Of a DNA stretch of 64,000 nucleotides, positions 7,541 to 56,782 are shown piece by piece. The DNA comes from a virus, in the IMG/VR virus record IMGVR_UViG_3300030329_005813, positions 1 through 64,000 of that record; one strand, written 5' to 3'. The position numbers and the translations under genes were made by a program. The notes under the pieces are model-generated. The model did not search any database. It was not told the origin of the DNA and saw nothing but the letters and a program-made list of their open reading frames with translations. The stretch's first letter is position 1; every line of letters starts with the position of its first letter.

Positions 7541-7585
7541 TTAGGAATTCTCCAGCGTCGAGGGGCATCCCCGACTTACTCTATA

Positions 7586-7641
7586 ATTATACACCCAATC
7601 AGGTACAAAGTAAAGGATTTAATTGTAAAGGAAATGTCAAG
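7586..7641 (-). promoter_or_regulatory. Early promoter with tandem upstream element
   Basis: TTTACT-17-TATAAT; TGTAAAG-GAAA-TGTCAAG (+) at 7624-7641. Confidence 0.8.
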
Positions 7642-7666
7642 GCCGAGATGGCTCGGCCAACCTAGT

Positions 7667-8488: not shown

Positions 8489-8513
8489 GTAGTTCTCTCC
8501 TGTCTACCCCATA

Positions 8514-8569
8514 ATTATACACCCGATGGGGCCACGGGTCAAGAATCTTTTTGTCAAGAGAATGTTAAG
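8514..8569 (-). promoter_or_regulatory. Early promoter with tandem upstream element
   Basis: TTGACC-17-TATAAT; TGTCAAG-AGAA-TGTTAAG at 8552-8569. Confidence 0.8.
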
Positions 8570-8597
8570 GCTTAAAACCTAGATATTTCCTTTAATA

Positions 8598-9314: not shown

Positions 9315-9372
9315 TTTTTCCTCGAAAAGTAGGGATTCTGGGGTGTCGGGAACTTTCCCGACCGTTACAGTA

Positions 9373-9428
9373 ATTATACACCCAATCGGGTACAAAGTCC
9401 AGAACAAAATTGTCAATAGAATGTCAAG
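9373..9428 (-). promoter_or_regulatory. Early promoter with tandem upstream element
   Basis: TGGACT-17-TATAAT; TGTCAAT-AGAA-TGTCAAG at 9411-9428. Confidence 0.75.
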
Positions 9429-9456
9429 GGGCAAAAAGCCCCTTTAAAACTTTACT

Positions 9457-10179
9457 TTACGCAGCTAAAGGAACCAACATTTTGGCGCTGATGGTGCCCT
9501 CGCTCATTTCATCGAGCCAAAAAACAGTTATCTTGTAGTTTTCTAAGAGTTCCTGCTCCACGACAGACTTAACAATCCCCTTGCGGTGGGCGTCCGGGGC
9601 TGGAGGCCAAGCGACCCCAAGGGGCTGAACGAGATCACCAACCTTAAAAACGTAGGTAAATGGCTCCTTTTCTGGCGCTGGAGGGGCAGCCGCTTTGACG
9701 GCTGTATTGAGGCGACGCGCAGTCTTTGGCTTTGAACCTGTCTTTTTCTTGCGTGGCACCCATCGTTTCTTCGAGGGCTTGACAGGCAACGCGAGAAAAC
9801 CTTCATCGTTCGCCCGCTTTCGAGCAGTGCTGTAGGTTTTTCGCATCGCTTCGAGCAGGCGACCGGTGATAGCTTCCATATCACCCGTTCGGTTGATACG
9901 GGTGCTCTTGACCAAACCACGGCTTTGACCAGTACTATTAGTGTACACCGCGCAGACGCGAATGGCATCCTCCCCGACAGTACGCATCTCGCCGTTGAGA
10001 ATCGAGGTTAAAACTCGAATCTTAGCTGACCCGTTGGAAACTCCGTCGACGTCGCGGCAATACACATCTTCGTTTCTAGAGGGGCCTTCGAGAGAAAACC
10101 CGCTTCCTTTCAACATCTTCGCGATGCGCTTGGCGAGGGTCTTACGGTGCTGCTTATTGTTGGGGTTGTAGCGTGGCAT
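9457..10179 (-). CDS. Hypothetical protein with basic linker and C-terminal SH3-like domain (FKVGDLV...VFW)
   Basis: ORF track translation; GGAG RBS. Confidence 0.7.
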   Translation of the reverse strand: MPRYNPNNKQHRKTLAKRIAKMLKGSGFSLEGPSRNEDVYCRDVDGVSNGSAKIRVLTSILNGEMRTVGEDAIRVCAVYTNSTGQSRGLVKSTRINRTGDMEAITGRLLEAMRKTYSTARKRANDEGFLALPVKPSKKRWVPRKKKTGSKPKTARRLNTAVKAAAPPAPEKEPFTYVFKVGDLVQPLGVAWPPAPDAHRKGIVKSVVEQELLENYKITVFWLDEMSEGTISAKMLVPLAA

Positions 10180-10205
10180 GTAGTGAATCTCCAAATTACA
10201 CGTAC

Positions 10206-10266
10206 ATTATACAGGAAAATGTCGTCAATGTCAAGAAGAATCTTCTCTCTTGACCTTCTCTTTACA
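10206..10266 (-). promoter_or_regulatory. Early promoter with inverted tandem upstream element
   Basis: TTGACA-17-TATAAT; CTTGACC-TTCT-CTTTACA (+) at 10249-10266. Confidence 0.8.
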
Positions 10267-10284
10267 TTTCAAAATTGCCCTCGT

Positions 10285-10479
10285 TTAACTTAGCTTTTTA
10301 AAAAGATCTGGATATTCCCAAACTTGCAGGCCGGTTTTGACCCACTGTATACGCATGCGGTCTGGTGGGTGCGGAGTTTTCATCGGCGGCTGTATTTCCA
10401 CGACCAAAGCCAATTTTTCGCCCTTGAATCTTATCCGCTGTACAGCGGCCTCAATTAAGTCTCCAGGTTTAAACTTCAT
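10285..10479 (-). CDS. Small SH3/KOW-like protein
   Basis: FKPGDLI...IQW. Confidence 0.65.
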   Translation of the reverse strand: MKFKPGDLIEAAVQRIRFKGEKLALVVEIQPPMKTPHPPDRMRIQWVKTGLQVWEYPDLFKKLS

Positions 10480-10664
10480 TTTTCTACCCTCACTAAATCT
10501 CTAAGATCAAATAGCTGTTTCTTCCCTACTTTTGGGCCAGTGAGCCATATGACCATAGCCTTCTCGATAATACGACCAGCACCGTAATCGAGCCTTTGAA
10601 CCTTGGCAATCGAGCCTAGAGCGAGTCTATTGCCCTTGTAGCAAACCAAATCACCTTTTTGCAC
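10476..10664 (-). CDS. Small SH3/KOW-like protein
   Basis: KGDLV...VIW. Confidence 0.65.
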   Translation of the reverse strand: MQKGDLVCYKGNRLALGSIAKVQRLDYGAGRIIEKAMVIWLTGPKVGKKQLFDLRDLVRVEK

Positions 10665-10881
10665 TTACAACCTCCAGATCCTGGTTCCAGTAGCGCCGGT
10701 AGTGTTGCTGTAGCATCGGGTGGACTTTATCAGTTAGAAACAGGACTTTAAAAAGAGTCGCTTCCGCTTTATAGGCCCAGTCGCTGGCGAGATGCTTTTC
10801 GATCTTTACGATCATAGCGAGCGAATTACTTGGAACACCGACGGAAGCTCGCTTTATTCGTACTAAATCACCGGGTCGCAC
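10651..10881 (-). CDS. Small SH3/KOW-like protein
   Basis: RPGDLV...LEVVS. Confidence 0.65.
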   Translation of the reverse strand: MRPGDLVRIKRASVGVPSNSLAMIVKIEKHLASDWAYKAEATLFKVLFLTDKVHPMLQQHYRRYWNQDLEVVSAKR

Positions 10882-11053
10882 TGATCACCTCCAAATACTT
10901 ATCTTCAACAACTTCTTCTTTTTTTGCCGTTCCAAACCAGCGAACCATCCACCAACGTGGATGTTTTTTCCCGACGTATGCGGAGCGCAAAACAAGGCCG
11001 CGTGGACGTTGGCCTTCTCCGTAGGTTCTACGCACTATATCGCCGGGTTTCAC
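10868..11053 (-). CDS. Small SH3/KOW-like protein
   Basis: KPGDIV...VRW...LEVIS. Confidence 0.65.
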   Translation of the reverse strand: MKPGDIVRRTYGEGQRPRGLVLRSAYVGKKHPRWWMVRWFGTAKKEEVVEDKYLEVISATR

Positions 11054-11451
11054 TATTCACCTTCCGATTCTGCTGAAGGAATAGTCGAAAATTCATCGGC
11101 TTCTACCTCCGAAATCGTCAAAAAACCTCCAGGAAAAGCCGCTACAGCATCTTCCCAAGACATATCACCTGAAAGAAAAGATTGAAGCTCTTCTTTGGTC
11201 ATCTCGCTAATGTTAACAGTTAATTCTGTAGTTTTATTCACTGTTTTCTCCGAATGGTTGTTCAAAATTTCTAAATCCGAAACCCACGAAAACCAAGGTT
11301 TGGGCCGGGATATCCACTGAACCCAGCAGCACCACATACCATACTCATCCTCTTCTGAGTCCTTGATAACAATGCCAATACCTAGCTTTTTGGCGTCTCC
11401 CTCGACCGTTCCCGGCCTAGCCTTGACCAAAGTTCCCTTCTTAACTTTCAT
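11053..11451 (-). CDS. SH3/KOW-like protein with acidic C-terminal extension
   Basis: KKGTLV...GIGIVI...VQW...DLEIL. Confidence 0.65.
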   Translation of the reverse strand: MKVKKGTLVKARPGTVEGDAKKLGIGIVIKDSEEDEYGMWCCWVQWISRPKPWFSWVSDLEILNNHSEKTVNKTTELTVNISEMTKEELQSFLSGDMSWEDAVAAFPGGFLTISEVEADEFSTIPSAESEGE

Positions 11452-11762
11452 TTAAACCATCCTTGGGTCTTGTCGAAAGATGGGTTAAGAGTTACCTTTT
11501 CGTCTGATGGCGTTGGGTTCCAAACCCAAAATCGGCGTTTCTTGGTACCAATCTGATGAAGGCCGTGAGGCGCCGGACCTCCAAGACCATTCTTGCGAGA
11601 TTGCCCTTTCGAAGAGAAGATTCCAGCTTCGACTGCCATAGCAGCCAGATCTTCAGATTCAACCTTAATAATTTGCTCGTGGCCCTCGAAGGGGCCAAAA
11701 ACTGCTTCAATATCCTTATCCGAAACTGGACTTTGGGCGGATTCGACAACAAAGTGTAGCAA
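11448..11762 (-). CDS. Stand-alone protein resembling the TyrRS C-terminal S4-like domain
   Basis: DLAAMAVEAGIFSSKGQSRKNG...HQIGTKKRRF. Confidence 0.55.
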   Translation of the reverse strand: MLHFVVESAQSPVSDKDIEAVFGPFEGHEQIIKVESEDLAAMAVEAGIFSSKGQSRKNGLGGPAPHGLHQIGTKKRRFWVWNPTPSDEKVTLNPSFDKTQGWFK

Positions 11763-11785
11763 GCGGTTCTCCTGTTTACCCCATA

Positions 11786-11841
11786 ATTATACACCCGTGG
11801 GCCTACGAAGTCAATAGCGAAGTTGTCAAGCGAATGTCAAC
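11786..11841 (-). promoter_or_regulatory. Early promoter with tandem upstream element
   Basis: TTGACT-17-TATAAT; TGTCAAG-CGAA-TGTCAAC at 11824-11841. Confidence 0.8.
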
Positions 11842-12259
11842 AACAATAATTGGTCATCAAATGCAGGTTATCGGGCTCTAGCTCCGAAAGGTAGTCTTCA
11901 AAGGCTTTATCGTCGTGAATGCTCCAATCTTCGCCTTCTTCCTCATCTTCTACGTTTTCGTCGAAAGAGTCGATTCGAGCTTGGGTTTCGCGATCTTTGA
12001 TGAGCACGTTATTTTCCCGCGTGTAAGCTGCAATATCACGCAGCGTTTCCTCGGCCTCTGTGGCTCTCCTGAGAGCATCCTGGACCTCTGACGGGTCCAT
12101 AGTCGTCTCGGGCTCTACCTGGGCCGTCACGGCGCTCTGTGGGCCTGTAAGGATAGCTACGACCTTACCGTGCTTGGTTACCTGGACCGGGCCAGACTCT
12201 AGGTCTTGAAGCAGGCTGGAAAATTGAACTCTGATTTCGGATGCGGTGATTGTCTTCAA
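11837..12259 (-). CDS. Phd/YefM-family antitoxin-like protein with long acidic tail
   Basis: MKTITASEIRVQFSSLLQDLESGPVQVTKHGKVVAIL fits the Phd/YefM N-terminal pattern. Confidence 0.7.
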   Translation of the reverse strand: MKTITASEIRVQFSSLLQDLESGPVQVTKHGKVVAILTGPQSAVTAQVEPETTMDPSEVQDALRRATEAEETLRDIAAYTRENNVLIKDRETQARIDSFDENVEDEEEGEDWSIHDDKAFEDYLSELEPDNLHLMTNYCC

Positions 12260-12317
12260 GATAACTCCATAATGGATGATTGATTTTTGGCCATTGGCCG
12301 ATTGCTAAGGTTAAAAG

Positions 12318-12402
12318 CGGAGAAGGTGAGATTCGAACTCACGGTGCCTTTCGGCACGTCGGTTTTCAAGACCGATACCTTAAACCACTCGGTCACTTCT
12401 CC
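12318..12402 (-). tRNA. tRNA-Ser(UGA)
   Basis: GGAGAAG/CTTCTCC acceptor, G discriminator, TCGGT-CTTGAAA-ACCGA anticodon arm, long variable arm GTGCCGAAAGGCAC. Confidence 0.93.
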
Positions 12403-12412
12403 AGGTTGTAAG

Positions 12413-12495
12413 TAGCTGAGGCGGGATTCGAACCCGCAAGCCCGATGGGGCGTCAGATTTTAAGTCTGATGTGTATTCCATTCCACCACTCAGCC
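12413..12495 (-). tRNA. tRNA-Leu(UAA)
   Basis: GGCTGAG/CTCAGCT acceptor, TCAGA-CTTAAAA-TCTGA anticodon arm, variable arm, TTCGAAT T-loop; TTGACT-17-TACAAT promoter directly upstream. Confidence 0.92.
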
Positions 12496-12523
12496 ATAAT
12501 TGTATTTGCCCTTGTTTTTTAAG

Positions 12524-12790
12524 TCAAGTTAGAGCCTCTTTATTTTGTTTTTTGTGTACGCTATACACCAGATGTGCGGCGGATAGCAAGAAAGTAATAG
12601 CGAGATTGGGATCCCAGACCGGCAAAAAGAGAGCTACAACTGACCAAATGGCGTAATAGTATAACGCAAAAATCGTGATTGTAGCACACGTAGCAACGTG
12701 AATGCTAAGGGCAATCTGCCTTTTCAGGCGACCGGTGGGGTCTTTTTCCGCCGCCTCTTTAAGTTTCGCCATGGAAGGTAGTTTTCTCAT
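12524..12790 (-). CDS. Small membrane protein
   Basis: Two hydrophobic segments. Confidence 0.6.
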   Translation of the reverse strand: MRKLPSMAKLKEAAEKDPTGRLKRQIALSIHVATCATITIFALYYYAIWSVVALFLPVWDPNLAITFLLSAAHLVYSVHKKQNKEALT

Positions 12791-12799
12791 AGTGTTCCT

Positions 12800-12976
12800 C
12801 TAAAAAGGGATTTCGGGATCTAGATCGGCGGGAGCCGGGTCATAGTCAGGGTCCATCCCGTAAGATGGCTCATCGTGATAGTTCTCCTCTTCATATTCGC
12901 TTTGGGCGAATTCAGAGGAAAGGTCGAAACCGTCGAAGATAACGGTTGGCATTGGCTTTTCGTGCATGTACGGCAT
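12800..12976 (-). CDS. 58-aa acidic peptide ending DLDPEIPF (SSB C-terminal tip-like); not in ORF track
   Basis: AAAGGAG RBS 6 nt before ATG; first gene after the promoter at 13001-13056. Confidence 0.7.
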   Translation of the reverse strand: MPYMHEKPMPTVIFDGFDLSSEFAQSEYEEENYHDEPSYGMDPDYDPAPADLDPEIPF

Positions 12977-13000
12977 GTAGAACTCCTTTCTAGCCCCATA

Positions 13001-13056
13001 ATTATAGCACCGATAGGGCGGCAGGTCAATAGTTAAATTGTTAAGGAAATGTCAAG
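13001..13056 (-). promoter_or_regulatory. Early promoter with tandem upstream element
   Basis: TTGACC-17-TATAAT with extended TG; TGTTAAG-GAAA-TGTCAAG at 13039-13056. Confidence 0.8.
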
Positions 13057-13393
13057 AGGCAAAAGCATCCTTTAAATGCTTACATTTGCCTCGGAATTTA
13101 AAACCAGGACACGAACAAGTGACTTCGCCCGTAGCCTTCGAGCGCCGCAAAGTATAGGTATTACCTCGTGAACCGGTAACTTTAACCTCTTCGAAGTTGT
13201 CCCCTGGCTTGTCCCAAGACATCCATTTAGGTAGGTCTTCCCTGGTAGATCCCGCAGGTATGGGGATCCAAGTTCCGCCCGAGATGGCGTAGGTTATCCC
13301 GCTTGGGAAGGTGGATATCGCCGGACAAGCGTCCACCTTGATGGGGAAGTCAATCTCTGGGTGGGCCTCGATAGGGTCAGGCGTGGCCGGCAT
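13052..13393 (-). CDS. SWIM zinc-finger protein
   Basis: GSRGNTYTL...[14 protein letters not shown] (CxC...CxH). Confidence 0.8.
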
Positions 13394-13562
13394 AGCTGGC
13401 CTCCAAAGCAGTTTCTAGCTTGTCCAGCAAGTTGTCAAGCGTCTCGATCTTACCATTAACGAGTTCGTCCCCGTGATATAGGGCAACATCTTTTAGGTCT
13501 TCGATGCTATTATTGATACTGTCGATCAAGCTAACAATTTCGTCAGTTGTCAAGTCCATCAT
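13377..13562 (-). CDS. Hypothetical acidic helical protein
   Basis: ORF track; GGAGG RBS. Confidence 0.6.
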
Positions 13563-13746
13563 TGTCGGCCTCCAAAGCCTGTTTAATTTCCTCGTCGGTC
13601 CAACCCGCTTTCTTCAGAAAGTCGATCTGGCTGGGCAAACCTTCATTATTGCTGTTGGCCGCAAACGCTGATGCGGCCTCGCGGACGATCTCGTCCAAGT
13701 CTTCGGGTCCAAGACCCTTTTCCATAACCCAGCTTACAAGGTCCAT
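13543..13746 (-). CDS. Hypothetical protein
   Basis: ORF track; GGAGG RBS. Confidence 0.6.
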   Translation of the reverse strand: MDLVSWVMEKGLGPEDLDEIVREAASAFAANSNNEGLPSQIDFLKKAGWTDEEIKQALEADNDGLDN

Positions 13747-14018
13747 TATTCGGCCTCCAAAGCCGCAGCGTCGCGACCATAGCCATCGGCGTGGGCGCGG
13801 GCAATATGGTACTTGACGAGAGTGTGCATACCCTTTTCAATTCTGTCAAGTCGGTCTGTTTGTACGTGATACAGGGCCAGAAGAAGCCAGATAAGCGCCG
13901 AGATGGCGTGGCCGGTCCAGAAGGAACCCACGAAGGCAACAAAGTAGCCGAAAAGTATTAAATTATCCAATTTCAATCTCCACATAGGGGCGAGTGTGAC
14001 CAGTTGGCGTACTGCCAA
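13746..14018 (-). CDS. Small membrane protein (true start probably slightly downstream)
   Basis: Hydrophobic segments. Confidence 0.5.
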   Translation of the reverse strand: MAVRQLVTLAPMWRLKLDNLILFGYFVAFVGSFWTGHAISALIWLLLALYHVQTDRLDRIEKGMHTLVKYHIARAHADGYGRDAAALEAE

Positions 14019-14194
14019 TCGCTGATTTGGCCGTTTTTACAAAGAGAATCGGTCCAGTCGTTCCAAGCTTCGGAACGGGCGGGCCAGTCAGGCTTGCCGT
14101 CCTGCTCGTACTGATCGATAATCGCAGGAAGAACGTGCTCTTCGAACTGAATACACGCTTGATCCCAGGTAATGACGCGATAAAGGTTTTTCAT
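13973..14194 (-). CDS. Conserved-looking small phage protein (EAWNDWTDSLCKNGQIS...QYANW)
   Basis: AGGAG RBS; Trp-rich motif recalled from small proteins of other phages. Confidence 0.7.
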   Translation of the reverse strand: MKNLYRVITWDQACIQFEEHVLPAIIDQYEQDGKPDWPARSEAWNDWTDSLCKNGQISDWQYANWSHSPLCGD

Positions 14195-14207
14195 ACTATC
14201 TAACTCC

Positions 14208-14369
14208 TTACTTACAGACTTCAGCGTGTGCCAAGTCAGCCATCACTTCAATTGCTTCGTCCAAAGTTTCAAACTCGCCCAGACACTCGGGCTCGCCCAC
14301 CTCTTCGACAAGGCCATCATCTTCATCGATTTCTTCGATGTGAACCCAAATTTTATAAATTTTGCTCAT
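14208..14369 (-). CDS. 53-aa acidic protein (MSKIYKIWVHIEEIDEDD...); not in ORF track
   Basis: Manual translation; GGAG RBS; promoter at 14414-14469. Confidence 0.6.
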   Translation of the reverse strand: MSKIYKIWVHIEEIDEDDGLVEEVGEPECLGEFETLDEAIEVMADLAHAEVCK

Positions 14370-14413
14370 TTTTCAATCTCCACGTTGTGGGGCCATCCCC
14401 AATCAACAAGTAC

Positions 14414-14469
14414 ATTATCTCATAGATTTCGATTTTGTTCAACCTTTAAAATGTTAAAGAAATGTCAAG
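14414..14469 (-). promoter_or_regulatory. Early promoter with tandem upstream element
   Basis: TTGAAC-17-GATAAT with extended TG; TGTTAAA-GAAA-TGTCAAG at 14452-14469. Confidence 0.65.
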
Positions 14470-14477
14470 AGAAAAAA

Positions 14478-14512
14478 CACCCTGCGCGTGAGGATTTCTC
14501 ACGCGCAGGGTG
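14478..14512 (-). terminator. Intrinsic terminator
   Basis: 15-bp perfect stem CACCCTGCGCGTGAG/CTCACGCGCAGGGTG followed by T6 on the minus strand. Confidence 0.85.
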
Positions 14513-14518
14513 GCAGCC

Positions 14519-14695
14519 TTAGATGATTTTGTAGTAAGCCTCATCGGCGTATGCTTCGATGCCGTGGCCAATTACTATCACTGCCTTACCATTTTTTAAA
14601 GGGACAGTTCTTACAGTGCCAGCTTTAATCGTGGTTTTTCCACCGATTGTATCGTATGTGAAATCTCTTGTAAATTCAACTTTTCTGGTTTCCAC
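14519..14695 (-). CDS. 58-aa beta-rich hypothetical protein; not in ORF track
   Basis: AAGGAG RBS, GTG start; lies between a promoter and a terminator. Confidence 0.55.
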   Translation of the reverse strand: METRKVEFTRDFTYDTIGGKTTIKAGTVRTVPLKNGKAVIVIGHGIEAYADEAYYKII

Positions 14696-14763
14696 CTTAA
14701 AAACTCCTTTAAAGAAGTGAGGGTTGCTTTTGCTGTAAGGTCTTCTCTTTACCTTACACTATA

Positions 14764-14819
14764 AATATAAGACCATAGCGAGAAAAGTCAATGCTCTAAA
14801 TTGTAAAGGGAATGTCAAG
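14764..14819 (-). promoter_or_regulatory. Early promoter with tandem upstream element
   Basis: TTGACT-16-TATATT; TGTAAAG-GGAA-TGTCAAG at 14802-14819. Confidence 0.7.
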
Positions 14820-14827
14820 AGAAAAAA

Positions 14828-15958: not shown

Positions 15959-16168
15959 TCATCTACCAGCCCATCGAGCGTCCTTCAACGTCATCATCGG
16001 CTGGTAAGCTCCCTTATTGAAAGCTGGGGCGGAGCAACGTGCTCGGTGTTGTGCGAGCTTGTTGGCGTCCACGTCGCCACAATCGAGGCAAGTTGTGTAA
16101 CCAAGTTGAGCGCGTTTGATATTGTATTCCTCGCCGCACTCGCTACAATGTACGATGTTCCTGCTCAT
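15959..16168 (-). CDS. TraR/DksA-type C4 zinc-finger-like small protein
   Basis: CSECGEEYNIKRAQLGYTTCLDC. Confidence 0.6.
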   Translation of the reverse strand: MSRNIVHCSECGEEYNIKRAQLGYTTCLDCGDVDANKLAQHRARCSAPAFNKGAYQPMMTLKDARWAGR

Positions 16169-16181
16169 TCTTCGTTCTCCT

Positions 16182-41614: not shown

Positions 41615-42465
41615 AGCGCCTCACATAGTTTGCGAAAAAATCCTGTAGGCTTGGTGCCATTCTCTACGATCTGCTCTATAGAGTCATAACAAAACTCAAA
41701 ACGATCATCTGGCTTATAATAGCGTATACTGTTCGAAAATACCTGTCTTTCGGCAGGTTCTACTTTTATTGCGTAGTATTTGTAGCGGTCTGGTCGAAGC
41801 TGATCTCTACCATTTCGAGCCCCACGAATACCGGCTGCTTTCATCATTTTAATAATTTTAAACTTTGCCATCGTATCGGAAAAATCAAAATCTTTCAGTT
41901 CTTCATCGGTCAAGTATGAGATAGCAACTAAATCTTTTAATTTACCACTATCAAGTCGTCCTGAGGTATAAAAAAATATCTCTTTTATAAACTGCTCATC
42001 ACTTTCCAGATAATCAACACCATGCCGGCATCCACTACGAACATTAACCCAATCAATAACTGTATTCTTTCTTTTCTCTTCTTTTGTAACTCTTGGTAGG
42101 CCCGTAATCTTCTCATCGTCAAAAATAACCAATTTGTTAAAATTATACTTAATAACTCTAGAGCCAGAAGAAACAGTTAAACTTTTGTCTTTGACTCTTA
42201 AGGTATTGTCCATCTCATTTACCAACACAAGACCAGAAAGACCCAGAAGAAAAATTAGTTTTTCCCAGATCTCCCTGCTTGTCGTTGTTTCATTTACATC
42301 AATATTCAGTTTCGTTAGATCATCACAAGGAAAAAGATCAAAACGAAAAGGAGGTAAAGGCCCACTGTAAACCACTGGTAGGCTTCGAAGACTTGCGTAC
42401 AGTAGCGCTCTAATACACCCTCCAACCACAATCCTATCTTTTTCAAATTCTAGGTTCCTTTTCAT
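41611..42465 (-). CDS. Hypothetical protein with degenerate Rossmann-like start
   Basis: RIVVGGCIRALLYA. Confidence 0.55.
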   Translation of the reverse strand: MKRNLEFEKDRIVVGGCIRALLYASLRSLPVVYSGPLPPFRFDLFPCDDLTKLNIDVNETTTSREIWEKLIFLLGLSGLVLVNEMDNTLRVKDKSLTVSSGSRVIKYNFNKLVIFDDEKITGLPRVTKEEKRKNTVIDWVNVRSGCRHGVDYLESDEQFIKEIFFYTSGRLDSGKLKDLVAISYLTDEELKDFDFSDTMAKFKIIKMMKAAGIRGARNGRDQLRPDRYKYYAIKVEPAERQVFSNSIRYYKPDDRFEFCYDSIEQIVENGTKPTGFFRKLCEAL

Positions 42466-42473
42466 CTAGCTTA

Positions 42474-42623
42474 TTATGCTTTGCCCTGACCACGATACTT
42501 TTTTCTGTAGCCCTTGGGCACTGTACCGCCAGAGTTCTTTGATTTATACTTAGTATTCTTGCTGTTTCCAATACTTGTTTTTTTAGCCCTCCCATCGGGA
42601 GACCAACCACTTTTAGCTGCCAT
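42474..42623 (-). CDS. 49-aa basic peptide ending KKYRGQGKA; not in ORF track
   Basis: Manual translation; AAGGAG RBS. Confidence 0.6.
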   Translation of the reverse strand: MAAKSGWSPDGRAKKTSIGNSKNTKYKSKNSGGTVPKGYRKKYRGQGKA

Positions 42624-42943
42624 TATAAACTCCTTCGAAGCCTAGAGACTTCCTCTCTCAAGATTAAAACTTCTTCGCGAATTGCTTTAAGGCGGAAATT
42701 TGAGGATTCGCTTAATTTGACCAAATCATCGCATCCACCAATAAATTCATCTCCCAAAAAGATAACTGGGACTGTTTTTTGGCCCGTGTCTTCAATGATC
42801 ATTTCGCGAAGATTAAGATCTTTCGTGACATCAATTGAGTGTAGGCTGCACTTGAGTTCATTTAAAATCACATCTTTTGCCTTATCACAAAAGGGACATC
42901 CGTCCTTAATGTACATCTTAAACGCCGTTCTATTATCTAACAT
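42623..42943 (-). CDS. Glutaredoxin
   Basis: CPFC, TVPVIF, IGGCDDL. Confidence 0.9.
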   Translation of the reverse strand: MLDNRTAFKMYIKDGCPFCDKAKDVILNELKCSLHSIDVTKDLNLREMIIEDTGQKTVPVIFLGDEFIGGCDDLVKLSESSNFRLKAIREEVLILREEVSRLRRSL

Positions 42944-42946
42944 TAC

Positions 42947-43225
42947 TTATTCTCCATTTTCTCGGTTTGAAGTGTCTAAAGGAACATTTTCTATTAAATT
43001 CTCTGGTAACAAGAGCTTCCATAATTCACCATACAAATCTAAAAGAATAGATTTATCCGTATTGGGAATTTGCAACTCGCTGTGTTCTTCTTCTGTGATG
43101 AACCTATTTCTTTTAAGAGTAGTTAATACCATATTTGTCATTAAATTGATATCTTTTTCTTCTAGGTTTGATCCTTCTGGCAAGGCCGCTATTAATGTGG
43201 CTTTAATTTGATCGGTTAAGTTCAA
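42947..43225 (-). CDS. Hypothetical protein
   Basis: ORF track. Confidence 0.55.
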   Translation of the reverse strand: MNLTDQIKATLIAALPEGSNLEEKDINLMTNMVLTTLKRNRFITEEEHSELQIPNTDKSILLDLYGELWKLLLPENLIENVPLDTSNRENGE

Positions 43226-43455
43226 TCTTTCTTCTCTTGGTCGGGTACTGGGCGCAAATAATAAACTTTTTTCTTATTCGGGGGCTCTTCTTCATATTCT
43301 TGCATTTGACGAAACAAATCTTCAGCAGTTTTTACAGAACCGCGAAAATAACCCTCGTCGTAAGCTGACTTCCAAGTATAACGCTCCACTGCAAATGTCC
43401 ACCCTACAAAACCAGCAATACAAATAATAATTAGTATCTCATTCACTCTTCGCAC
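43222..43455 (-). CDS. Small membrane protein
   Basis: N-terminal transmembrane segment. Confidence 0.55.
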   Translation of the reverse strand: MRRVNEILIIICIAGFVGWTFAVERYTWKSAYDEGYFRGSVKTAEDLFRQMQEYEEEPPNKKKVYYLRPVPDQEKKD

Positions 43456-43808
43456 CCCTGTACAACAATAGCCACAAAGTCATCGCCATCGAGAACCCAA
43501 TGACGCCTAGCAACAATCGTGTCTTCTCCAAATGCATTTAAATCTGATAGGGCTTCCTGCAAATAGTCAGGCATTGAACTCCACGGGATAGTACCAATAG
43601 TGGCGAAAAGAGAGCTTGGATCCTTGTCACCTATCGTCTCTACATCTTGCGGTGTCAGCATAGCAGTCATAACCTCTGCTGCGTGATGTGGGCATTCGTA
43701 GTCCATTTCTTTGTGATCAAAAGAAACAAACTGATTGTAAAGTGTACCTCCAACAAAAGTGCCTTCTTTTGGTTTGGACTCGATCCAAAGCGGTCCTTCA
43801 ATTTTCAC
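43443..43808 (-). CDS. Cassette ORF, hypothetical
   Basis: Ends QGCEE*. Confidence 0.65.
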   Translation of the reverse strand: MKIEGPLWIESKPKEGTFVGGTLYNQFVSFDHKEMDYECPHHAAEVMTAMLTPQDVETIGDKDPSSLFATIGTIPWSSMPDYLQEALSDLNAFGEDTIVARRHWVLDGDDFVAIVVQGCEE

Positions 43809-43993
43809 TCTTCACTCTCCAGTTTATCCGCTAGCTTCTCAAGTTCCTTCATTACCATAACATAACTAATGTTTCCCGGCAAACCATCTGGTAAGACGCG
43901 CTCTATCAAATGAAGGTTCTGAGGCGGGTTTAAACAACCTTTTTTAAGTGCCTCTGCTTGATTCCTTAATATTTCTGCAATAATAAAATTCAT
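43805..43993 (-). CDS. Cassette ORF, hypothetical
   Basis: Ends LESEE*. Confidence 0.6.
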   Translation of the reverse strand: MNFIIAEILRNQAEALKKGCLNPPQNLHLIERVLPDGLPGNISYVMVMKELEKLADKLESEE

Positions 43994-44175
43994 TCTTCGC
44001 TCTCCACTCTTATAAGTTCAAACTCTTCATATCTGTAAACAATCGGGTGTTCGCCACTTCGGTCAATGACCAAATCTTTCTTCCCGGTTGATTGCATTTT
44101 CCACTTTGTATTTAAGCGACGAGTATTAGGGCTTTCGTCAGAGACTTCTACTTTTATTTCTGGTAGGTCTTTCAT
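43990..44175 (-). CDS. Cassette ORF, hypothetical
   Basis: Ends VESEE*. Confidence 0.6.
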   Translation of the reverse strand: MKDLPEIKVEVSDESPNTRRLNTKWKMQSTGKKDLVIDRSGEHPIVYRYEEFELIRVESEE

Positions 44176-44333
44176 TCTTCGCTTTCCACGTTTAGGAGTC
44201 TTATGAGTTCATCTTCAAGTTCATCAGTTAATTCCTCAAGAGGATAAAGTTCGGGACTAACCATTGTTTTTTTGTATTCTTTGCTAAACTCAACAATCTT
44301 CCAGCAAATACGTCTTAATTCATTGTCGCTCAT
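44172..44333 (-). CDS. Cassette ORF, 53 aa; not in ORF track
   Basis: MSDNELRRICWKIVEF...LLNVESEE*. Confidence 0.6.
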   Translation of the reverse strand: MSDNELRRICWKIVEFSKEYKKTMVSPELYPLEELTDELEDELIRLLNVESEE

Positions 44334-44545
44334 TCTTCGCTCTCCTCACGAAACACGCCGTTTTCTTCTACCAATACCTTAACATCATATCTCTCAAGAA
44401 ACAAGTCCCACATCTCTTCTCCAACGACAGCACACTCTTTTCCAAAGTAGCCCTTTAGCCACTGGTGTCTCTCCCACGAGTTTGGTAGAGGGACAAAAAT
44501 AGAGTTTACTTCATTGCTAGTTCTAATGAACTTGCACTTTTTCAT
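44330..44545 (-). CDS. Cassette ORF, hypothetical
   Basis: Ends EESEE*. Confidence 0.6.
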   Translation of the reverse strand: MKKCKFIRTSNEVNSIFVPLPNSWERHQWLKGYFGKECAVVGEEMWDLFLERYDVKVLVEENGVFREESEE

Positions 44546-44772
44546 TCTTCGCTCTCCACAAGTTCAACATCCTCTAAATAGTCTTCGCTTGTATCGCCTG
44601 TCAAGAAGAATGGATTTCCCTCTGGGATTTCGTTGTCCCACTTTATGACGGCATAGAAGAAGCCTTTAGGCTCCTCTTCAATCGGGTGAATCTCCGTAAT
44701 AGTTCCTGTCCCTCTATTAAACTCGCTGTCAAGGTAGAAAAGACGATCACGAACTCTATCACCGACTTTCAT
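44542..44772 (-). CDS. Cassette ORF, SH3/KOW-like (MKVGDRV...IKWD...VESEE)
   Basis: ATG lies within the junction repeat. Confidence 0.65.
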   Translation of the reverse strand: MKVGDRVRDRLFYLDSEFNRGTGTITEIHPIEEEPKGFFYAVIKWDNEIPEGNPFFLTGDTSEDYLEDVELVESEE

Positions 44773-45463
44773 TCTTCGCTCTCCGATAAGCACCAACCGC
44801 AACAGGCCATAACTCTTCTGCGATCTCCAAGCAAGCCTCAGCAACCTTTTGTATTTCCCATTGCGCCCCTTCGTGCGTGCGGAGGTCAATGAACTTTAGA
44901 AGATTGTTTAGGTTGACTGTGCCATAATACTCGGTGTACATATTTTGAGGCAGAACGCCTCTTGCTTGCTCTCGGCAAACGCCTGCTTCGATGAGGCTGT
45001 TAAATAATTCCAAAGAAATCCTATTATGTCCTAGGAATGCTTCAGAAGCAGCAACCTTATGTGCTCCAGCAAGAAACAAATCTGGATCAATCAACTCTTC
45101 GACGTTGCTTGCCTGTCGGTTGGACTTGTGTTGAGTACGGAATGCTTCGGGCTCGTAGAACTGGATGTTTACGTCAGTATACCGACGAGAAATTTCATTA
45201 TAGCTCCAAGTCCGATGACGATGATGCTGAGAACGAACGAAGAGGGGGACAGTAAAGCGGAAAGTAATAGTATTATGCTCAAACGTAGACGTGTGCCGAT
45301 GCTTAACCAAATAGCTGATAAGTTTTTTATCCTTTTCATCTAATTCTTCCTTGTGCTTCCCAAAACTGACACGAGCACTATTAACAATAGTAAGATCGTC
45401 ACCCATGTATTGCACGAGATCAACTGTTCCAATTCCATCTCCATATAGCTCGATTGATTTCAT
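44759..45463 (-). CDS. thyX: Flavin-dependent thymidylate synthase
   Basis: HTSTFEH, RHRTWSYNEISRRY, REQARGVLP, AQWEI. Confidence 0.95.
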   Translation of the reverse strand: MKSIELYGDGIGTVDLVQYMGDDLTIVNSARVSFGKHKEELDEKDKKLISYLVKHRHTSTFEHNTITFRFTVPLFVRSQHHRHRTWSYNEISRRYTDVNIQFYEPEAFRTQHKSNRQASNVEELIDPDLFLAGAHKVAASEAFLGHNRISLELFNSLIEAGVCREQARGVLPQNMYTEYYGTVNLNNLLKFIDLRTHEGAQWEIQKVAEACLEIAEELWPVAVGAYRRAKNESR

Positions 45464-46468
45464 TTATTCGCCCCATAGAGCTGAACAAATAGTGTCGGTT
45501 ACAATAGCCGTAACCTGATACGGGTCACAATTTGCATTTGGTCTCCGATCTTCAATATAGCCTACTCCCTCGATAGCGACTTGCCACGGAATACGAACTG
45601 AAGCGCCTCGGTCTGAAACGCCCCACTTAAACTCCTTATAGGAACAAGTTTCGTGCAGACCGGTTAAACGTTCTTCAATTTTATCTCCATATACGTGTAT
45701 ATGTTCAGAAGCTTTTACGGCTAGTGCTCTTGCTGCCTGCTCGTAAACTCCCTTTTCAGTACGCATCTCAACGGTAGAATAATTAGTGTGACAGCCGGCG
45801 CCGTTCCAATCTCCCTTAACGGGCTTCGGATCCCAACTAACTGATACGCCATACTTTTCGGCTACGCGCTCCAGTAAGTATCGAGCCAGCCACAAATGAT
45901 CAGCAGCCTTAACTGGTCCTAGAGGACCAACCTGAAACTCCCATTGACCCGGCATTACTTCGGCATTGATACCCGAGATGGCCAGTCCGGCTTGAAGACA
46001 TAATTCAAGATGTTCCTCGACAATTTGCCGACCAAATGCATTGGAGGCACCAACGCTACAATAATACTGTCCTTGCGGAGATGGATATCCAGTTTCTGGG
46101 AATCCTAATGGTCGACCGTCCTTAAACAACGTGTATTCCTGCTCTAGGCCGAACCACGATTCGTGTTTTTCGTACTTTTTGGCCAATTCAACACATTGAT
46201 GCCTAGTGTTTGACTTGTGTGGCGTCATGTCAGGGTTAAGTACCTCGCACAATACCAACGTAGAGTTGGGGCCACGGAGCGGGTCTGGAGTAACCGATAA
46301 GACTGGTTTTAAAACACAATCAGAGCTAGAGCCCTCGGCTTGGTTAGTAGAAGAGCCATCAAACCCCCACAGTGATAAATCATCGTTATTACCGATTACT
46401 TTTGTTTTGCTTCTTAATTGTGGTGTCGGCTCTGTGCCATCAATCCAAATATATTCTGCTAATTTCAT
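45464..46468 (-). CDS. glnII: Glutamine synthetase type II
   Basis: EYIWIDG, FDGSSTNQA, NAEVMPGQWEFQVGP, DWNGAGCHTNYS, EDRRP..NCDPY. Confidence 0.93.
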   Translation of the reverse strand: MKLAEYIWIDGTEPTPQLRSKTKVIGNNDDLSLWGFDGSSTNQAEGSSSDCVLKPVLSVTPDPLRGPNSTLVLCEVLNPDMTPHKSNTRHQCVELAKKYEKHESWFGLEQEYTLFKDGRPLGFPETGYPSPQGQYYCSVGASNAFGRQIVEEHLELCLQAGLAISGINAEVMPGQWEFQVGPLGPVKAADHLWLARYLLERVAEKYGVSVSWDPKPVKGDWNGAGCHTNYSTVEMRTEKGVYEQAARALAVKASEHIHVYGDKIEERLTGLHETCSYKEFKWGVSDRGASVRIPWQVAIEGVGYIEDRRPNANCDPYQVTAIVTDTICSALWGE

Positions 46469-46499
46469 TTTGTCTTATACTCTCATTAATTCAATAAAT

Positions 46500-46844
46500 T
46501 TAGGCTTCTTTGCCCTTAATAATTTTCCCACAACAGTTGCACTCAAAAGGTTCAGCCAATTTAGATTCGCTCTCATTATAATTGAAAGTAACTTCCTCAT
46601 CGCTCTCTATATCGCGTAAAGACACTACAAAAAAACTGACAACCTTACAAGTAGGATTACAAGAATGATTAATATATCTACCTACCTTGTCCTCGACGTG
46701 ATATTTCTTAGATACTTGAATAGATGTTCTGGTTGGGCCTGGAACTAGCGTGCCGGTAGTCAAATCACATACCACAGCCCCTTTCTTACAAGGTTCTTTG
46801 AGGTATACACCATATACATCATTTTTAGATGCTACGTAAATCAC
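46500..46844 (-). CDS. SET-domain protein
   Basis: RYINHSCNP, RDI..DEEVTFNY, post-SET-like FECNCC. Confidence 0.85.
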   Translation of the reverse strand: MIYVASKNDVYGVYLKEPCKKGAVVCDLTTGTLVPGPTRTSIQVSKKYHVEDKVGRYINHSCNPTCKVVSFFVVSLRDIESDEEVTFNYNESESKLAEPFECNCCGKIIKGKEA

Positions 46845-46851
46845 TTTTTAC

Positions 46852-47118
46852 TCACGCCTCAGGAGGAACAGGAAAATGTATTAGATTTTCATAGACGGAA
46901 TCTTCTTCGGGCTCGTCGATATTAAAAGAATCCGTAACGGCTGATATTTTATTTCTTAGTTGGCCTAAGGCTATAATCATATCCATAGTCTGGTCTACGG
47001 TCCACTCTTCTGGTAGATCACCAGTCCTAAGCCAGCGTTTCCAAGTTACTATCGCCATTTCAATACAGCCTTCCAACATATGCAAGTCAGAAAGTCCAAG
47101 ATCCATTGATTTTTTCAA
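46852..47118 (-). CDS. Hypothetical protein
   Basis: ORF track. Confidence 0.55.
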   Translation of the reverse strand: MKKSMDLGLSDLHMLEGCIEMAIVTWKRWLRTGDLPEEWTVDQTMDMIIALGQLRNKISAVTDSFNIDEPEEDSVYENLIHFPVPPEA

Positions 47119-47399
47119 TTTTCTTCCCTCATAGACGCCATAATATGATTTCGCTCGATCAGGCTAAAAGAATGTGATTCTACTTGTATGTCCCTAATAA
47201 TATGTGTTGGGATAACTAATAGCTCATCTTTCTTGAAGCTGGCCGCCTCATTAGTGGAATCCCGAATCACTTTGACAACTGAATAAGGACTCTCTTTTGC
47301 TTTGAAATCTTCCGGAAGCAAAACCATAGATTCTTTCTTTTCTTCTGGAGCCTTAACAAGCTCTACTAAAATCCAATTATTTTCTGGCTGTATTCTCAC
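47115..47399 (-). CDS. GroES-like co-chaperonin
   Basis: MRIQPENNWILVE...SMVLLPE...SLIERNHIMA; GTG start with GGAG RBS. Confidence 0.7.
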   Translation of the reverse strand: MRIQPENNWILVELVKAPEEKKESMVLLPEDFKAKESPYSVVKVIRDSTNEAASFKKDELLVIPTHIIRDIQVESHSFSLIERNHIMASMREEN

Positions 47400-47452
47400 T
47401 GTCTCTCCATTTGTATATAATATAACACACTCATATCCACAAGTCAAGTTAT

Positions 47453-48010
47453 TTAAGAATTGTTTTCGGCCACCTTTTTACACATCTCAATAAAATAGTC
47501 TTGTGGAAACTTGTTTTTCATCCTATTTATGTCTTTATGAACGAACTGAATGTTCTCTTTTGTGTAGCCCTTGTTGCTGTCGATTCTGTCTGGTGACCAA
47601 GTATTCTTGTCAAGTTTTACGCCGGAAAGGGCGCAAACAAAGCCACTCTTCTCTAAAGCCTCGTTCATAGCTTGAATGTTTATTTCAAACGGGATGTTCC
47701 TATCCATTGCTTGACGCTCCGTTCTCCGAAACCTCGCACCCGAAATAAGCCCACAACCCTTCCAACTTGGATTACCGGAGCCATAACTATGTTTCACAGA
47801 GCACTCATAACAACGAGTAGAGGCCCCATTTACTAACTGCGTGCAGTCAGTGGGTTTTTCGGCGCCGCATTTACACTTCACCGAATAATAGTAATAGAAA
47901 TTTTTTCCCTTTTTCAACCGGATCGGCTCTGGATCTAATAATTCCCACGAACCGAACTTATGTCCCTTTGGGAATAGATTTTTGTATTTTGTTTGTCCTT
48001 TTCTTGGCAT
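47453..48010 (-). CDS. Homing endonuclease (HNH-like) downstream of nrdJ
   Basis: CKCG..., CALSG, SPDRIDSNKGYTKENIQFVHKDINRMK. Confidence 0.85.
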   Translation of the reverse strand: MPRKGQTKYKNLFPKGHKFGSWELLDPEPIRLKKGKNFYYYYSVKCKCGAEKPTDCTQLVNGASTRCYECSVKHSYGSGNPSWKGCGLISGARFRRTERQAMDRNIPFEINIQAMNEALEKSGFVCALSGVKLDKNTWSPDRIDSNKGYTKENIQFVHKDINRMKNKFPQDYFIEMCKKVAENNS

Positions 48011-52872: not shown

Positions 52873-54114
52873 CTAAAACTGCTCAGCTTCGGTTGATTCT
52901 GTTAATGCTAGCGTCGATGACTCACCGCCGGTAATCACTTCTTTAACAGCGTCAAAATAGCCTGTTCCGACCTCTCTCTGGTGTTTTGTAGCGGTATACC
53001 CAAGGCTTTCAGCCTCAAACTCACGCTGCTGGAGGTCAACATAGGCGGTCATCCCCTCATCGCGATAACCAGACGCCAGCTTGAACATACTGTGATTTAA
53101 AGCGTGAAACCCGGCCAAAGTTACAAACTGAAACTTATAGCCCATTTTTCCAAGTTCTTTCTGAAAGATCGCAATTGTTTCGTCATCTAGGTGCTTCTTC
53201 CAATTAAATGATGGAGAGCAGTTATAAGCCAGCAGCTTACCTGGATACTTTGCGTGAATTGCGTCGGCAAACTGCCTAGCTTCGTCCAAGTTTGGCTTCG
53301 AGGTTTCACACCAGATTAGGTCTGCATACGGGGCATACTGTAGGCCACGATTAATGGCCATCTCAATGCCGCCCGTAATCTTATAAAAACCTTCAGCTGT
53401 CCGGACATCATCAGTAATAAATTTGCGATCTTCTTCATCGATATCGGTCGTCAACAACTTAGCGCTGTTTGCGTCAGTTCGTGCAATTAAGACGGTTGGA
53501 ACACGCATAACGTCTGCTGCCAAGCGAGCAGCCTTAAGATTACGAATAAATTGTGATCCTGGAATTAGTACTTTGCCGCCTAAGTGACCACATTTCTTTT
53601 CTGAGCTTAGCTGGTCTTCAAAATGAACTCCCGCCGCTCCAGCTTCAATCATAGCTCTCATAAGCTCGTAAGCGTTAAGTGGGCCACCAAAGCCAGCTTC
53701 GGCGTCGGCAACGATTGGCACCATCCAGTCCTTTGAACTATTCCCTTCAACACTATCAATTTGGTCGGCCCTGTGCAAAGCCTGATTAATCCTTTTTACA
53801 ACGTGAGGCACACTATTCGCTGGATACAAGCTCTGATCTGGGTACATATGGCCAGATAGGTTGGCATCTGCTGCCACTTGCCAGCCGGACAAGTAGATTG
53901 CTTTAAGCCCAGCTTTAACTTGTTGAACTGCTTGATTACCAGTTAGAGCGCCAAGGGCGATGACGGGATCTGGCTCGTGAATAGCATCCCATAGCTTATT
54001 TGCGCCTTGGATTGCCAAAGAGTGATAAATATACACACTTCCGCGCAACCTAGATACATCTTGATTAGTCCAATCTCTTTTAATTCCCTTCCAACGAAAA
54101 GTCTTGTCGCTCAT
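52873..54114 (-). CDS. aceA: Isocitrate lyase
   Basis: [49 protein letters not shown]. Confidence 0.96.
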
Positions 54115-54542: not shown

Positions 54543-55667
54543 TTATTCATCTTCGCCATCAATATCATAAAATTCTTTGGCGTCGACTTCTTTCTTCTCG
54601 AATTTAAGAATAACTTCCTGTTCCATAAGTTGCAAAATGCGATTACGAAACTTGTCATCTTGCAACTTACTAATCCAAGTGGCAGACTGAAACTTTTCTT
54701 CTGAGCCATCTTCATACTTAAGCGTAAACCATGCACCGGCATTTGTAATGTGCTTAGAACTCTTAATAGCCTCTAACCAAGATTCTTCATCTTGAATCTT
54801 CACATCATCGCCTGCCCATAAGATCTTAAATGTGCATTCTCGCGCATCAGAGCCAAACCTTGACTTCTTAATCTTAGCCTTAACCTCAGTGCCAACCCTA
54901 AAGCCCTTATCGTCGTAAATGAAGCTAGCTTTTCCTCGACGGGCGGTAAGCCAGATGCGAAGCGAATAAGCGTAGATTGCAGCCTTTCCACCAGGGGTAA
55001 AATAGGGCTCCAAACGGGCTTCTGCGATATTGCTTGTAATGTTGGTCTTAAGTTGGTTTAGGATAAGCAAGGTTGATTGTGAGTTGGCAATCGGCACAGT
55101 TAACTTAGAAAACCCTTTTGACAAAATACGAGGCTTAACCGCCATACTGGATAAAGGATTGAAATCACCATCGATATCCGAAATAGCAGGCGTCATAGCC
55201 AGCGAATCCCAGATAAAAAGCATTTGGTTTTCATTGCCGGCTAATAACTCCTCAATCGTTTCTAGAACAAACTCGACCGATTGAGCCTGGATATAAAGTA
55301 GATTTTCAATATCACAGCCCGCATTTGCCAAAAACTCTGGGTCTACAGCAGACTCAGAGTCAAAATATACCACATCAATCCCCATTTTCTGAGCATTGCC
55401 AGCAACCTGAGCCGCCATATATGACTTACCAGACGCTGAAAGACCAGCAATCTCGCTGATCTTACCCACTGGAATCCCAGCATACCTGCCTCGACAAATA
55501 ATAGAGTTTAACCAACGAGATCCGGTTGGGATCCACTGCTTAACTTCTGTAGGATTTGAATCCCCTAGGTCGTGTGCCACAGTTACGCCGGCCTTTTTAT
55601 TAACAATCTTTCGCATATCAGCGATAGAAAGTTTTCCAGCTTTAGGCTTTTTTGATGTACGTGGCAT
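54543..55667 (-). CDS. recA: RecA/UvsX recombinase
   Basis: IPTGS, EIAGLSASGKS, DSE, IWDS, LNQLK, TPGGKA. Confidence 0.9.
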   Translation of the reverse strand: MPRTSKKPKAGKLSIADMRKIVNKKAGVTVAHDLGDSNPTEVKQWIPTGSRWLNSIICRGRYAGIPVGKISEIAGLSASGKSYMAAQVAGNAQKMGIDVVYFDSESAVDPEFLANAGCDIENLLYIQAQSVEFVLETIEELLAGNENQMLFIWDSLAMTPAISDIDGDFNPLSSMAVKPRILSKGFSKLTVPIANSQSTLLILNQLKTNITSNIAEARLEPYFTPGGKAAIYAYSLRIWLTARRGKASFIYDDKGFRVGTEVKAKIKKSRFGSDARECTFKILWAGDDVKIQDEESWLEAIKSSKHITNAGAWFTLKYEDGSEEKFQSATWISKLQDDKFRNRILQLMEQEVILKFEKKEVDAKEFYDIDGEDE

Positions 55668-56524: not shown

Positions 56525-56782
56525 CTAGTCTTGTGAGTCGGTGTCGGCGTCTGTATCAGCGTCGGTATCCGCGTCCGTATCGGCATCGGTATCCGCATCT
56601 GTATCAGCATCGGTATCCGAGTCCGTATCGGCATCGGTATCCGTATCCGCCTCTACCACGTCAGTGTCATCAGTAACCTCGTCACAAGCGGGATCGCAAG
56701 CAACGATGAAAACAGTGGCAAGAATCGCCCCCATTCCCACAAGCACACCAATAACCATATCACGACTAATAAAGTCAAACAT
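56525..56782 (-). CDS. Putative lipoprotein with DTDA tandem repeats
   Basis: Hydrophobic leader ending IVAC; (DTDA)n encoded by a 12-bp repeat at ~56539-56650. Confidence 0.65.
   Translation of the reverse strand: MFDFISRDMVIGVLVGMGAILATVFIVACDPACDEVTDDTDVVEADTDTDADTDSDTDADTDADTDADTDADTDADTDADTDSQD

Follow-up and report, generated by a model that had tools for sequence, protein, structure and literature searches.

Downstream of the thymidylate synthase gene thyX, in a stretch of 64,000 nucleotides (nt) comprising positions 1 to 64,000 of the viral record IMGVR_UViG_3300030329_005813 (hereafter the window), a 16-nt sequence recurs seven times on the minus strand between 43443 and 44784, each interval holding a single small open reading frame (ORF). 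We consider it likely that this core is a standardised gene joint, across which single genes are exchanged through general homology- or microhomology-guided recombination. The arrays of cassettes that it delimits, here and in related marine viral contigs, are strongly supported as a clear example in nature of the linker route by which phages were long ago proposed to shuffle their genes, and as a variant of the modular shuffling known from linkers and from the PeSL elements of T4-type phages.

The core, GGAGAGCGAAGAATGA, consists of GGAG, 8 nt and then ATGA, and 14 of its 16 positions are purines. Four copies are exact, namely copy 1 (44769..44784), which lies in the 3′ end of thyX and provides the Shine-Dalgarno (SD) sequence and start of the first cassette, c1, copy 2 (44542..44557) at the c1/c2 junction, copy 3 (44330..44345) at c2/c3 and copy 5 (43990..44005) at c4/c5. 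Copy 4 (GGAAAGCG..., 44172..44187, c3/c4) carries one mismatch, copy 6 (GGAGAGTGAAGAGTGA, 43805..43820) two, both synonymous, and copy 7 (GGGGTGCGAAGAGTGA, 43443..43458) three, with a GTGA overlap. At up to three mismatches the window holds 9 matches, against 0.91 ± 0.98 in shuffled sequence, and none of 100 shuffles reached 9. The start-to-start spacings are 227, 212, 158, 182, 185 and 362 nt, every one of which is 2 mod 3; each interval is therefore one ORF with its ATG in one core and its TGA in the next, the two overlapping as ATGA. The anchor gene thyX (44759..45463, minus strand) encodes a flavin-dependent thymidylate synthase of 234 amino acids (aa), with Pfam Thy1 matches on its homologues. 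Its last codons cross copy 1 in the +1 register, where they read R-R-A-K-N-E, and its stop lies 10 nt beyond the core, inside c1. An earlier note, made from the letters of the window, had described this arrangement: seven cores with one small ORF in each interval, the first core inside thyX in a different frame, and each core supplying the SD, the tail codons of the upstream ORF and the ATGA overlap. A motif search bears out the positions and spacings, and the three roles of the core are seen at the level of sequence.

Nor is the core a generic ribosome-binding-site (RBS) context, as the same note had allowed it might be, since the whole 172,361-bp genome holds just one further copy. At up to two mismatches the core occurs only at the array sites and at 16165-16180, and a backwards control pattern occurs nowhere. 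The solitary copy (GGAGAACGAAGAATGA, 16165..16180, minus strand) lies 1 nt after a TGA stop and is non-coding there; it starts a 69-aa zinc-ribbon ORF (15959-16168).

Gene order breaks where the core is. We walked operons downstream from thyX in 62 unique loci and asked, wherever two loci shared a homologous gene, whether the next gene was also homologous. Across core junctions the neighbour was kept in 0/23 comparisons at 60-80% aa identity and 0/27 at 80-95%, or 0/50 in total, as opposed to 63/115 and 87/105, or 150/220 in total, across non-core junctions of the same operons; these comparisons are not independent of each other, but the contrast is very large. Gene content and order are thus far from invariant among relatives.

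The related marine viral contigs contain 40 non-identical arrays with 3 to 13 cores each. Their 105 single-ORF cassettes fall into 52 families, 27 of which recur in differing orders and combinations. The array of the window reads F03-F01-s-s-s-F04 (s, singleton family), and those of other contigs include F03-F01 (L008), F22-F23-F15-F04 (L033) and, at the end of a longer series, F01-x-s-F13-F04 (L175; x, an interval that is not a single ORF). Arrays range from zero cassettes, as in the thyX-core-glutaredoxin arrangement of L041, to at least 12 in L078. More than ten pairs of cassettes are 96-100% identical at the nucleotide level with both flanks unrelated, and the identity starts and stops at the core edges. 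Because such cassettes are near-identical and the adjacent thyX genes diverged (70-74% identical in 4/6 pairs tested, 86-90% in 2/6), single cassettes have moved recently between diverged backbones, and a comparison of L210 with L212 likewise reveals cassette transfer of this kind. Arrays are anchored mostly at the 3′ end of thyX, but some follow a glutamine-synthetase gene or a gene for a SpoU methylase, topoisomerase subunit, flap nuclease or PolA-like protein. Behind these other anchors stand the same cassette families, which agrees with the expectation that the same ORFs would be found flanked by the core at other loci.

Whole-cassette differences are also present between strains. Contigs whose encoded c6 protein is exactly that of the window are 99.3-99.9% identical to the window on both sides of the array, yet differ by entire cassettes. 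In L216, an extra 66-aa ORF together with one extra core stands exactly between the thyX core (copy 1) and c1. In L221, L224 and L225, c4 is exchanged between its two cores for a 67-aa F15 cassette with 94% protein identity to the first cassette of L085; homology resumes no more than 2 nt from the flanking cores, with copy 5 as the right breakpoint. L225 furthermore has a different cassette ahead of c3, and the c3/c4 core itself exists in three alleles among the strains, the variants being GGAGAGCG or GGAGAGTG. Gain, loss and replacement of cassettes with breakpoints in the core, as predicted in the earlier note, are therefore seen both among distant relatives and among the closest strains. 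Contigs from several independent assemblies also start at or near cores, at positions corresponding to 44784 (three contigs), 44345, 44007 and 44009; L221 ends exactly at copy 3, and L222 and L223 start 2-4 nt before copy 5. This is the expected result where alternative neighbours co-exist in one sample.

Two further proposals of the note, that the array is polarised and that new cassettes enter at the thyX-proximal core, fared less well. Mismatches to the core do rise away from thyX in this window (0, 0, 0, 1, 0, 2, 3 and then 4, 5, 7, 9), and L033, L058, L187 and L207 decay similarly at their distal ends, but other arrays are uniform or end abruptly. Strict polarity is not supported either: the insertion in L216 fits it, but other variants replace c4 or the cassette before c3. 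Since L216 changed at the thyX-proximal core and the others internally, exchange takes place at any intact core, and the degenerate distal junctions resemble older joints that have ceased to participate.

The core is conserved as nucleotides and not as peptide. Over 130 unique instances from relatives, information content is about 2 bits within the 16 nt and at most 0.4 bit directly outside both edges. In loci chosen by thyX alone, ESEE-stop tails are encoded GAG-AGC-GAA-GAA-TGA in 28/31 cases and ENEE-stop tails GAG-AAC-GAA-GAA-TGA in 30/33; no tail uses a TCN serine codon, although TCN makes up 71% of the serine codons in these sequences. The consensus is GGAGA(G/A)CGAAGAATGA, and arrays and genomes keep almost uniformly to either G or A at position 6, a choice that tracks the thyX clade. 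An ORF of at least 30 codons begins at 214 of the 230 unique instances. The upstream gene ends elsewhere than in the core in 54/230, which include some chance matches in unrelated contigs, and in some of these 54 its stop lies just before the core (TAA directly followed by GGAG...). The thyX genes themselves read the core in three registers, ending ...RRAKNExx-stop, ...RRIRNEE-stop or ...RRIKENEE-stop. Fixed codons, non-coding cores and alternative frames together speak against a conserved peptide tail as the source of the repeat.

These properties suggest how a joint of this kind might work. In the mRNA, it would give a Shine-Dalgarno GGAG, an 8-nt purine spacer and an AUG overlapping the UGA of the preceding gene, and any ORF lying between two joints would be translated, coupled to its neighbour, from a promoterless thyX operon. 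The cost to the cassette would be a four-residue E-S/N-E-E tail. In the DNA, the joint is the only sequence common to otherwise unrelated neighbours, and recombination would for that reason be channelled into it. Exchange would likely be carried out by the phage's own RecA/UvsX-type system, by annealing or by template switching, either between co-infecting genomes or, through slippage, between direct repeats of one genome, and circular intermediates may be involved. Each event would remove, add or replace exactly one gene and restore an intact joint, such that the exact 16-nt identity would be both the cause and the product of exchange. Indeed, because distal junctions are degenerate in several arrays, including this one, the exact core is not a general feature of operon junctions, and repeated copy-and-join accounts for its exact identity better than translational selection on its own.

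The recombination functions encoded in the genome are in keeping with this proposal. Searches of the genome, which is an estimated 95% complete, returned no tyrosine recombinase (PF00589, with positive controls), serine recombinase, RecT or ERF, and a RecA/UvsX-family recombinase of 374 aa (54543..55667, minus strand) is the only recombinase family found. The region from 43150 to 44900 contains neither inverted repeats of 10 nt or more within 60 nt nor attC-like hairpins, and conservation does not extend beyond the 16 nt, so the absence of attC hairpins and of a nearby integrase reported in the note stands, the latter for the genome as a whole. Where arrays share a cassette, its 5′ cores show polymorphic differences as far as position 13, and its 3′ cores show them from position 6 onwards. 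Unless the cores mutated after exchange, this spread excludes a single fixed crossover point, and it fits exchange at any place in a short stretch of homology. In one exchange, the left arm was the conserved thyX 3′ end and the right arm a core.

Several points weigh against exchange through general recombination at the joint. Sixteen nucleotides are short for RecA-type exchange, and some recombinant joints differ at one or two core positions, which may leave no more than a few bases of effective homology. A trans factor that recognises the sequence could instead be the reason why the spacer is so exactly conserved, and the near-uniform G or A at position 6 fits co-evolution with a factor of this kind as well as it fits concerted evolution. 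In RNA predictions the core is barely more accessible than background (0.49, versus 0.43-0.44 in flanks and controls), revealing no special translational property. Furthermore, the comparative data all come from metagenome assemblies, as assembled contigs only.

An alternative that we consider unlikely is that the core is kept mainly as a cis-acting RNA signal, either an optimal termination-reinitiation site or the operator of a regulator or RNase (RegA/RegB-like, or similar to the start-associated sequences, SAS, of mycobacteriophages). On this account the small genes marked by the core would form a co-regulated set, with recombination at it arising only incidentally. The position of the core at start codons, with most instances opening an ORF, speaks for such a role, as do its occurrence as a non-coding leader after a stop codon and its solitary copy at 16165, and the SAS of Cluster K mycobacteriophages set a precedent for conserved repeats that contain an RBS (PMC3203893). 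However, distal cassettes and neighbouring genes of the operon have degenerate or unrelated junctions, a scan of 42000-47600 with Rfam gave no match, and the accessibility values lend no signal. An RNA role alone would also give no reason for synteny to break specifically at cores, and it is compatible with the joint proposed here, not exclusive of it.

We regard as improbable a dedicated phage enzyme, a site-specific nuclease or recombinase that recognises the 16-mer and excises or inserts single genes, in effect an integron analogue with a new recombinase. The identity of the 16 nt is extreme across phages whose thyX genes are only 70-80% identical, the position-6 variant is genome-specific and many genes of the genome have no family assignment. 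Yet searches of the 95%-complete genome found neither a tyrosine nor a serine recombinase, the core is asymmetric and has neither an inverted repeat nor flanking conservation, the polymorphisms imply crossovers spread across the core and not at a fixed point, and one exchange used the thyX 3′ end in place of the core as its left arm. There is a similarly small chance that the 16-mer is the target of a dedicated phage factor more broadly, be it a nuclease, a recombinase or an RNA-binding regulator co-evolving with the G/A variant, that actively moves single genes. If so, the arrays would be an integrase-free and hairpin-free analogue of integrons in abundant uncultured marine phages.

It is very improbable that the ORFs are diverged tandem duplicates and the repeat their conserved C-terminal ESEE tail, a possibility raised in the earlier note. 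Five of the six ORFs do end in ESEE and several cassettes of relatives start with MKVGD, but the ORFs of the window belong to separate families, and a BLASTP comparison of c1-c6 with each other gave no non-trivial match even at E ≤ 10. The codon choice of the tail is also fixed, the core is elsewhere non-coding or read in other frames, and the tail of the c6 family varies with the type of junction. Equally hard to credit is a metagenome assembly artefact across the repeat: the relatives are all assembled contigs that often break at cores, but 16 nt is far below the assembly k-mers (k127 and k141 in contig names), long-read contigs exist, the same arrays recur across independent samples and different technologies, and breaks at cores are what co-existing haplotypes would produce. 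On this evidence we reject the tandem-duplicate, generic-RBS, peptide-tail and assembly-artefact readings.

Our literature search found no paper with the 16-mer, nor any on coupled cassette junctions of this type. The closest described system is that of the PeSL cassettes of T4-type phages (Arbiol et al. 2010, PMC2839356; Comeau et al. 2014, PMC4122927), which functions alike. In both, a short conserved expression element separates small ORFan genes in a hyperplastic region, and it is within this element that close relatives show the breakpoints of their insertions, deletions and replacements; PeSLs have no known dedicated recombinase, have themselves been compared to integrons and have been demonstrated to form mini-circles (PMC2839356, PMC4122927). 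The PeSL is, however, intergenic and several-fold longer, with a sigma-70 promoter and a terminator stem-loop that make each gene its own transcription unit. The present core has 16 nt, is partly coding, lacks -35 and -10 boxes (by scan) and a stem-loop, and cannot pair with itself; it appears to couple translation within one operon and leaves a common four-residue tail.

The linker or boundary sequences of the modular theory (Susskind and Botstein 1978 and Botstein 1980, as relayed in PMC2839356 and PMC3029335) are conserved sequences at module boundaries that direct homologous exchange so that recombinants stay functional, and the arrays fit this picture at single-gene resolution. A short sequence is common to the boundaries of unrelated modules, and points of exchange coincide with it far more often than with other gene boundaries, with neighbours kept at 0/50 core junctions against 150/220 others. 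Linkers cannot be found at most phage module boundaries (PMC3029335), whereas here dozens of junctions are marked, by only 16 nt that double as RBS, stop and start. The likeness to integrons is one of outcome only. In both, a fixed anchor is followed by promoterless single-ORF cassettes that all point the same way and are gained, lost and reordered as whole units, but here there is no IntI integrase, no attC hairpin and no fixed crossover, and expression would run through translational coupling and not from Pc alone.

The SAS of Cluster K mycobacteriophages (Pope et al. 2011, PMC3203893) resemble the core as asymmetric repeats of 13-16 nt in one orientation, with an SD just upstream of the starts of non-structural genes of different families and the upstream stop codon sometimes within the repeat. 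They differ in being dispersed, with the unrelated consensus GGGATAGGAGCCC placed 3-7 nt before start codons and an additional inverted-repeat element in half of the cases; the present core has the start codon inside the repeat, and no role in recombination is reported for SAS. The core junctions also have the anatomy expected for translational coupling, with an SD 5-10 nt before a start codon that overlaps the stop. In AUGA-type termination-reinitiation, the SD lies within the upstream coding sequence and stop and start overlap by 4 nt as ATGA or GTGA. To our knowledge, ordinary coupled junctions are not sequence-identical between unrelated gene pairs.

The cassettes of the window, all on the minus strand, encode proteins of 76, 71, 53, 61, 62 and 121 aa (c1 to c6), the first five ending in ESEE-stop and the last in GCEE-stop. 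The first, c1 (44542..44772, family F03), starts with MKVGD, and c2 (44330..44545, F01) is 91% identical at the nucleotide level to a copy in the L175 array behind the PolA-like gene. They are followed by c3 (44172..44333, a singleton family), c4 (43990..44175), which is the cassette replaced in strain variants, c5 (43805..43993) and c6 (43443..43808), whose family F04 is widespread in marine metagenomes. In that family the last four to five residues change with the junction (GCEE, ESEE, ENEE, ENEQ or ERKK) and the body is conserved; in an AlphaFold2 model of c6 of low confidence (predicted local distance difference test score, pLDDT, 67) the tail is disordered, and a Foldseek search of this model against the PDB gave no match at E ≤ 0.001. 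Beyond c6 lie c7 (43222..43446, 74 aa), which has a hydrophobic N-terminus and a next junction with a TTGA overlap and 4 mismatches to the core, and d8 (42947..43225, 92 aa), whose junction to the glutaredoxin gene has 5. Pfam and PHROG scans placed none of c1-c7 or d8 in a family. The cassette proteins probably serve dispensable host-interaction functions.

Two observations concern ThyX itself. Its last 1-6 residues are encoded by the adjoining cassette (NESR-stop here, NERT-stop in L216, NEIT-stop in L009), and the C-terminus of the enzyme consequently changes with every swap of the proximal cassette. The thyX gene of one relative is split by an intein that carries an HNH endonuclease domain (L120:4878-6662).

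The contig has 40.7% GC, and its genome encodes a DnaE-type polymerase, a DnaB-type helicase, a class II ribonucleotide reductase, an isocitrate lyase and a RecA-like protein. A DNA search among cultured phages gave no match, and the best protein matches in them are below 60% identity for thyX and about 30% for DnaE, which makes this an uncultured lineage; its relatives are abundant among marine viral contigs and in Tara assemblies. In minus-strand order, the locus consists of a SET-domain gene, a glutamine-synthetase-like gene (45464..46468) directly upstream of thyX, thyX, c1-c6, c7, d8 and a glutaredoxin/NrdH-like gene (42623..42943), the last being the conserved distal flank of the variable region. 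The best sigma-70-like promoter match (47419..47447, minus strand; TTGACT-17-TATATT with TG, a match to the consensus only) lies upstream of this block from the SET-domain gene to the cassettes, and a scan of the coding strand found no promoter-like or terminator-like sites inside the array. The glutamine-synthetase-like gene and thyX probably share one transcription unit.

Auxiliary genes of the window include the glutamine-synthetase-like gene, the SET-domain gene (46500-46844) and the isocitrate lyase gene (52873-54114). The glutamine-synthetase gene varies in position among relatives, standing after dnaE in L114 and directly before the cassette array in L122.

The earlier note had pointed to similar junction repeats at 3.9-4.1 kb and 13.4-13.8 kb. 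The former turned out to be a pair of tandem paralogues instead: at 3762-4141 (minus strand), a 69-nt repeat of 84% identity spans the ends and starts of adjacent paralogous ORFs of 56 and 57 aa that both start with MLRKGDL. The latter does exist. At 13391-13764 (minus strand), the junction repeat GCTTTGGAGGCC codes for A-L-E-A, contains the SD GGAGG and is found close to the ends of three small ORFs in a row; a further family of linkers may be represented here. Two repeats of other kinds are present in the window. Seven copies of a 39-67-nt repeat with TTGACA and TATAAT boxes, spaced 350-2413 nt apart, precede small early-type genes at 7577-14827 (minus strand), a promoter module reminiscent of PeSL-type elements. 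At 56526-56657, 12-nt tandem repeats lie within a coding region, with at least eight overlapping copies of a 48-nt register.

Whether phage mosaicism arises through linkers, as proposed by Botstein, or through random illegitimate recombination followed by selection, as argued by Hendrix, is an old debate. Here, a 16-nt joint marks dozens of boundaries, single genes are exchanged even among strains more than 99% identical, and an internal control is available in the ordinary junctions of the same operons. The arrays point to a design principle in which one short sequence would serve both expression and mobility and leave a harmless scar tail, much as in standard-part assembly. The joint also accounts for the breaks that assemblies of these abundant marine phages show at this locus, and the roughly 50 small mobile genes it delimits are candidates for functions in the interaction with the host.

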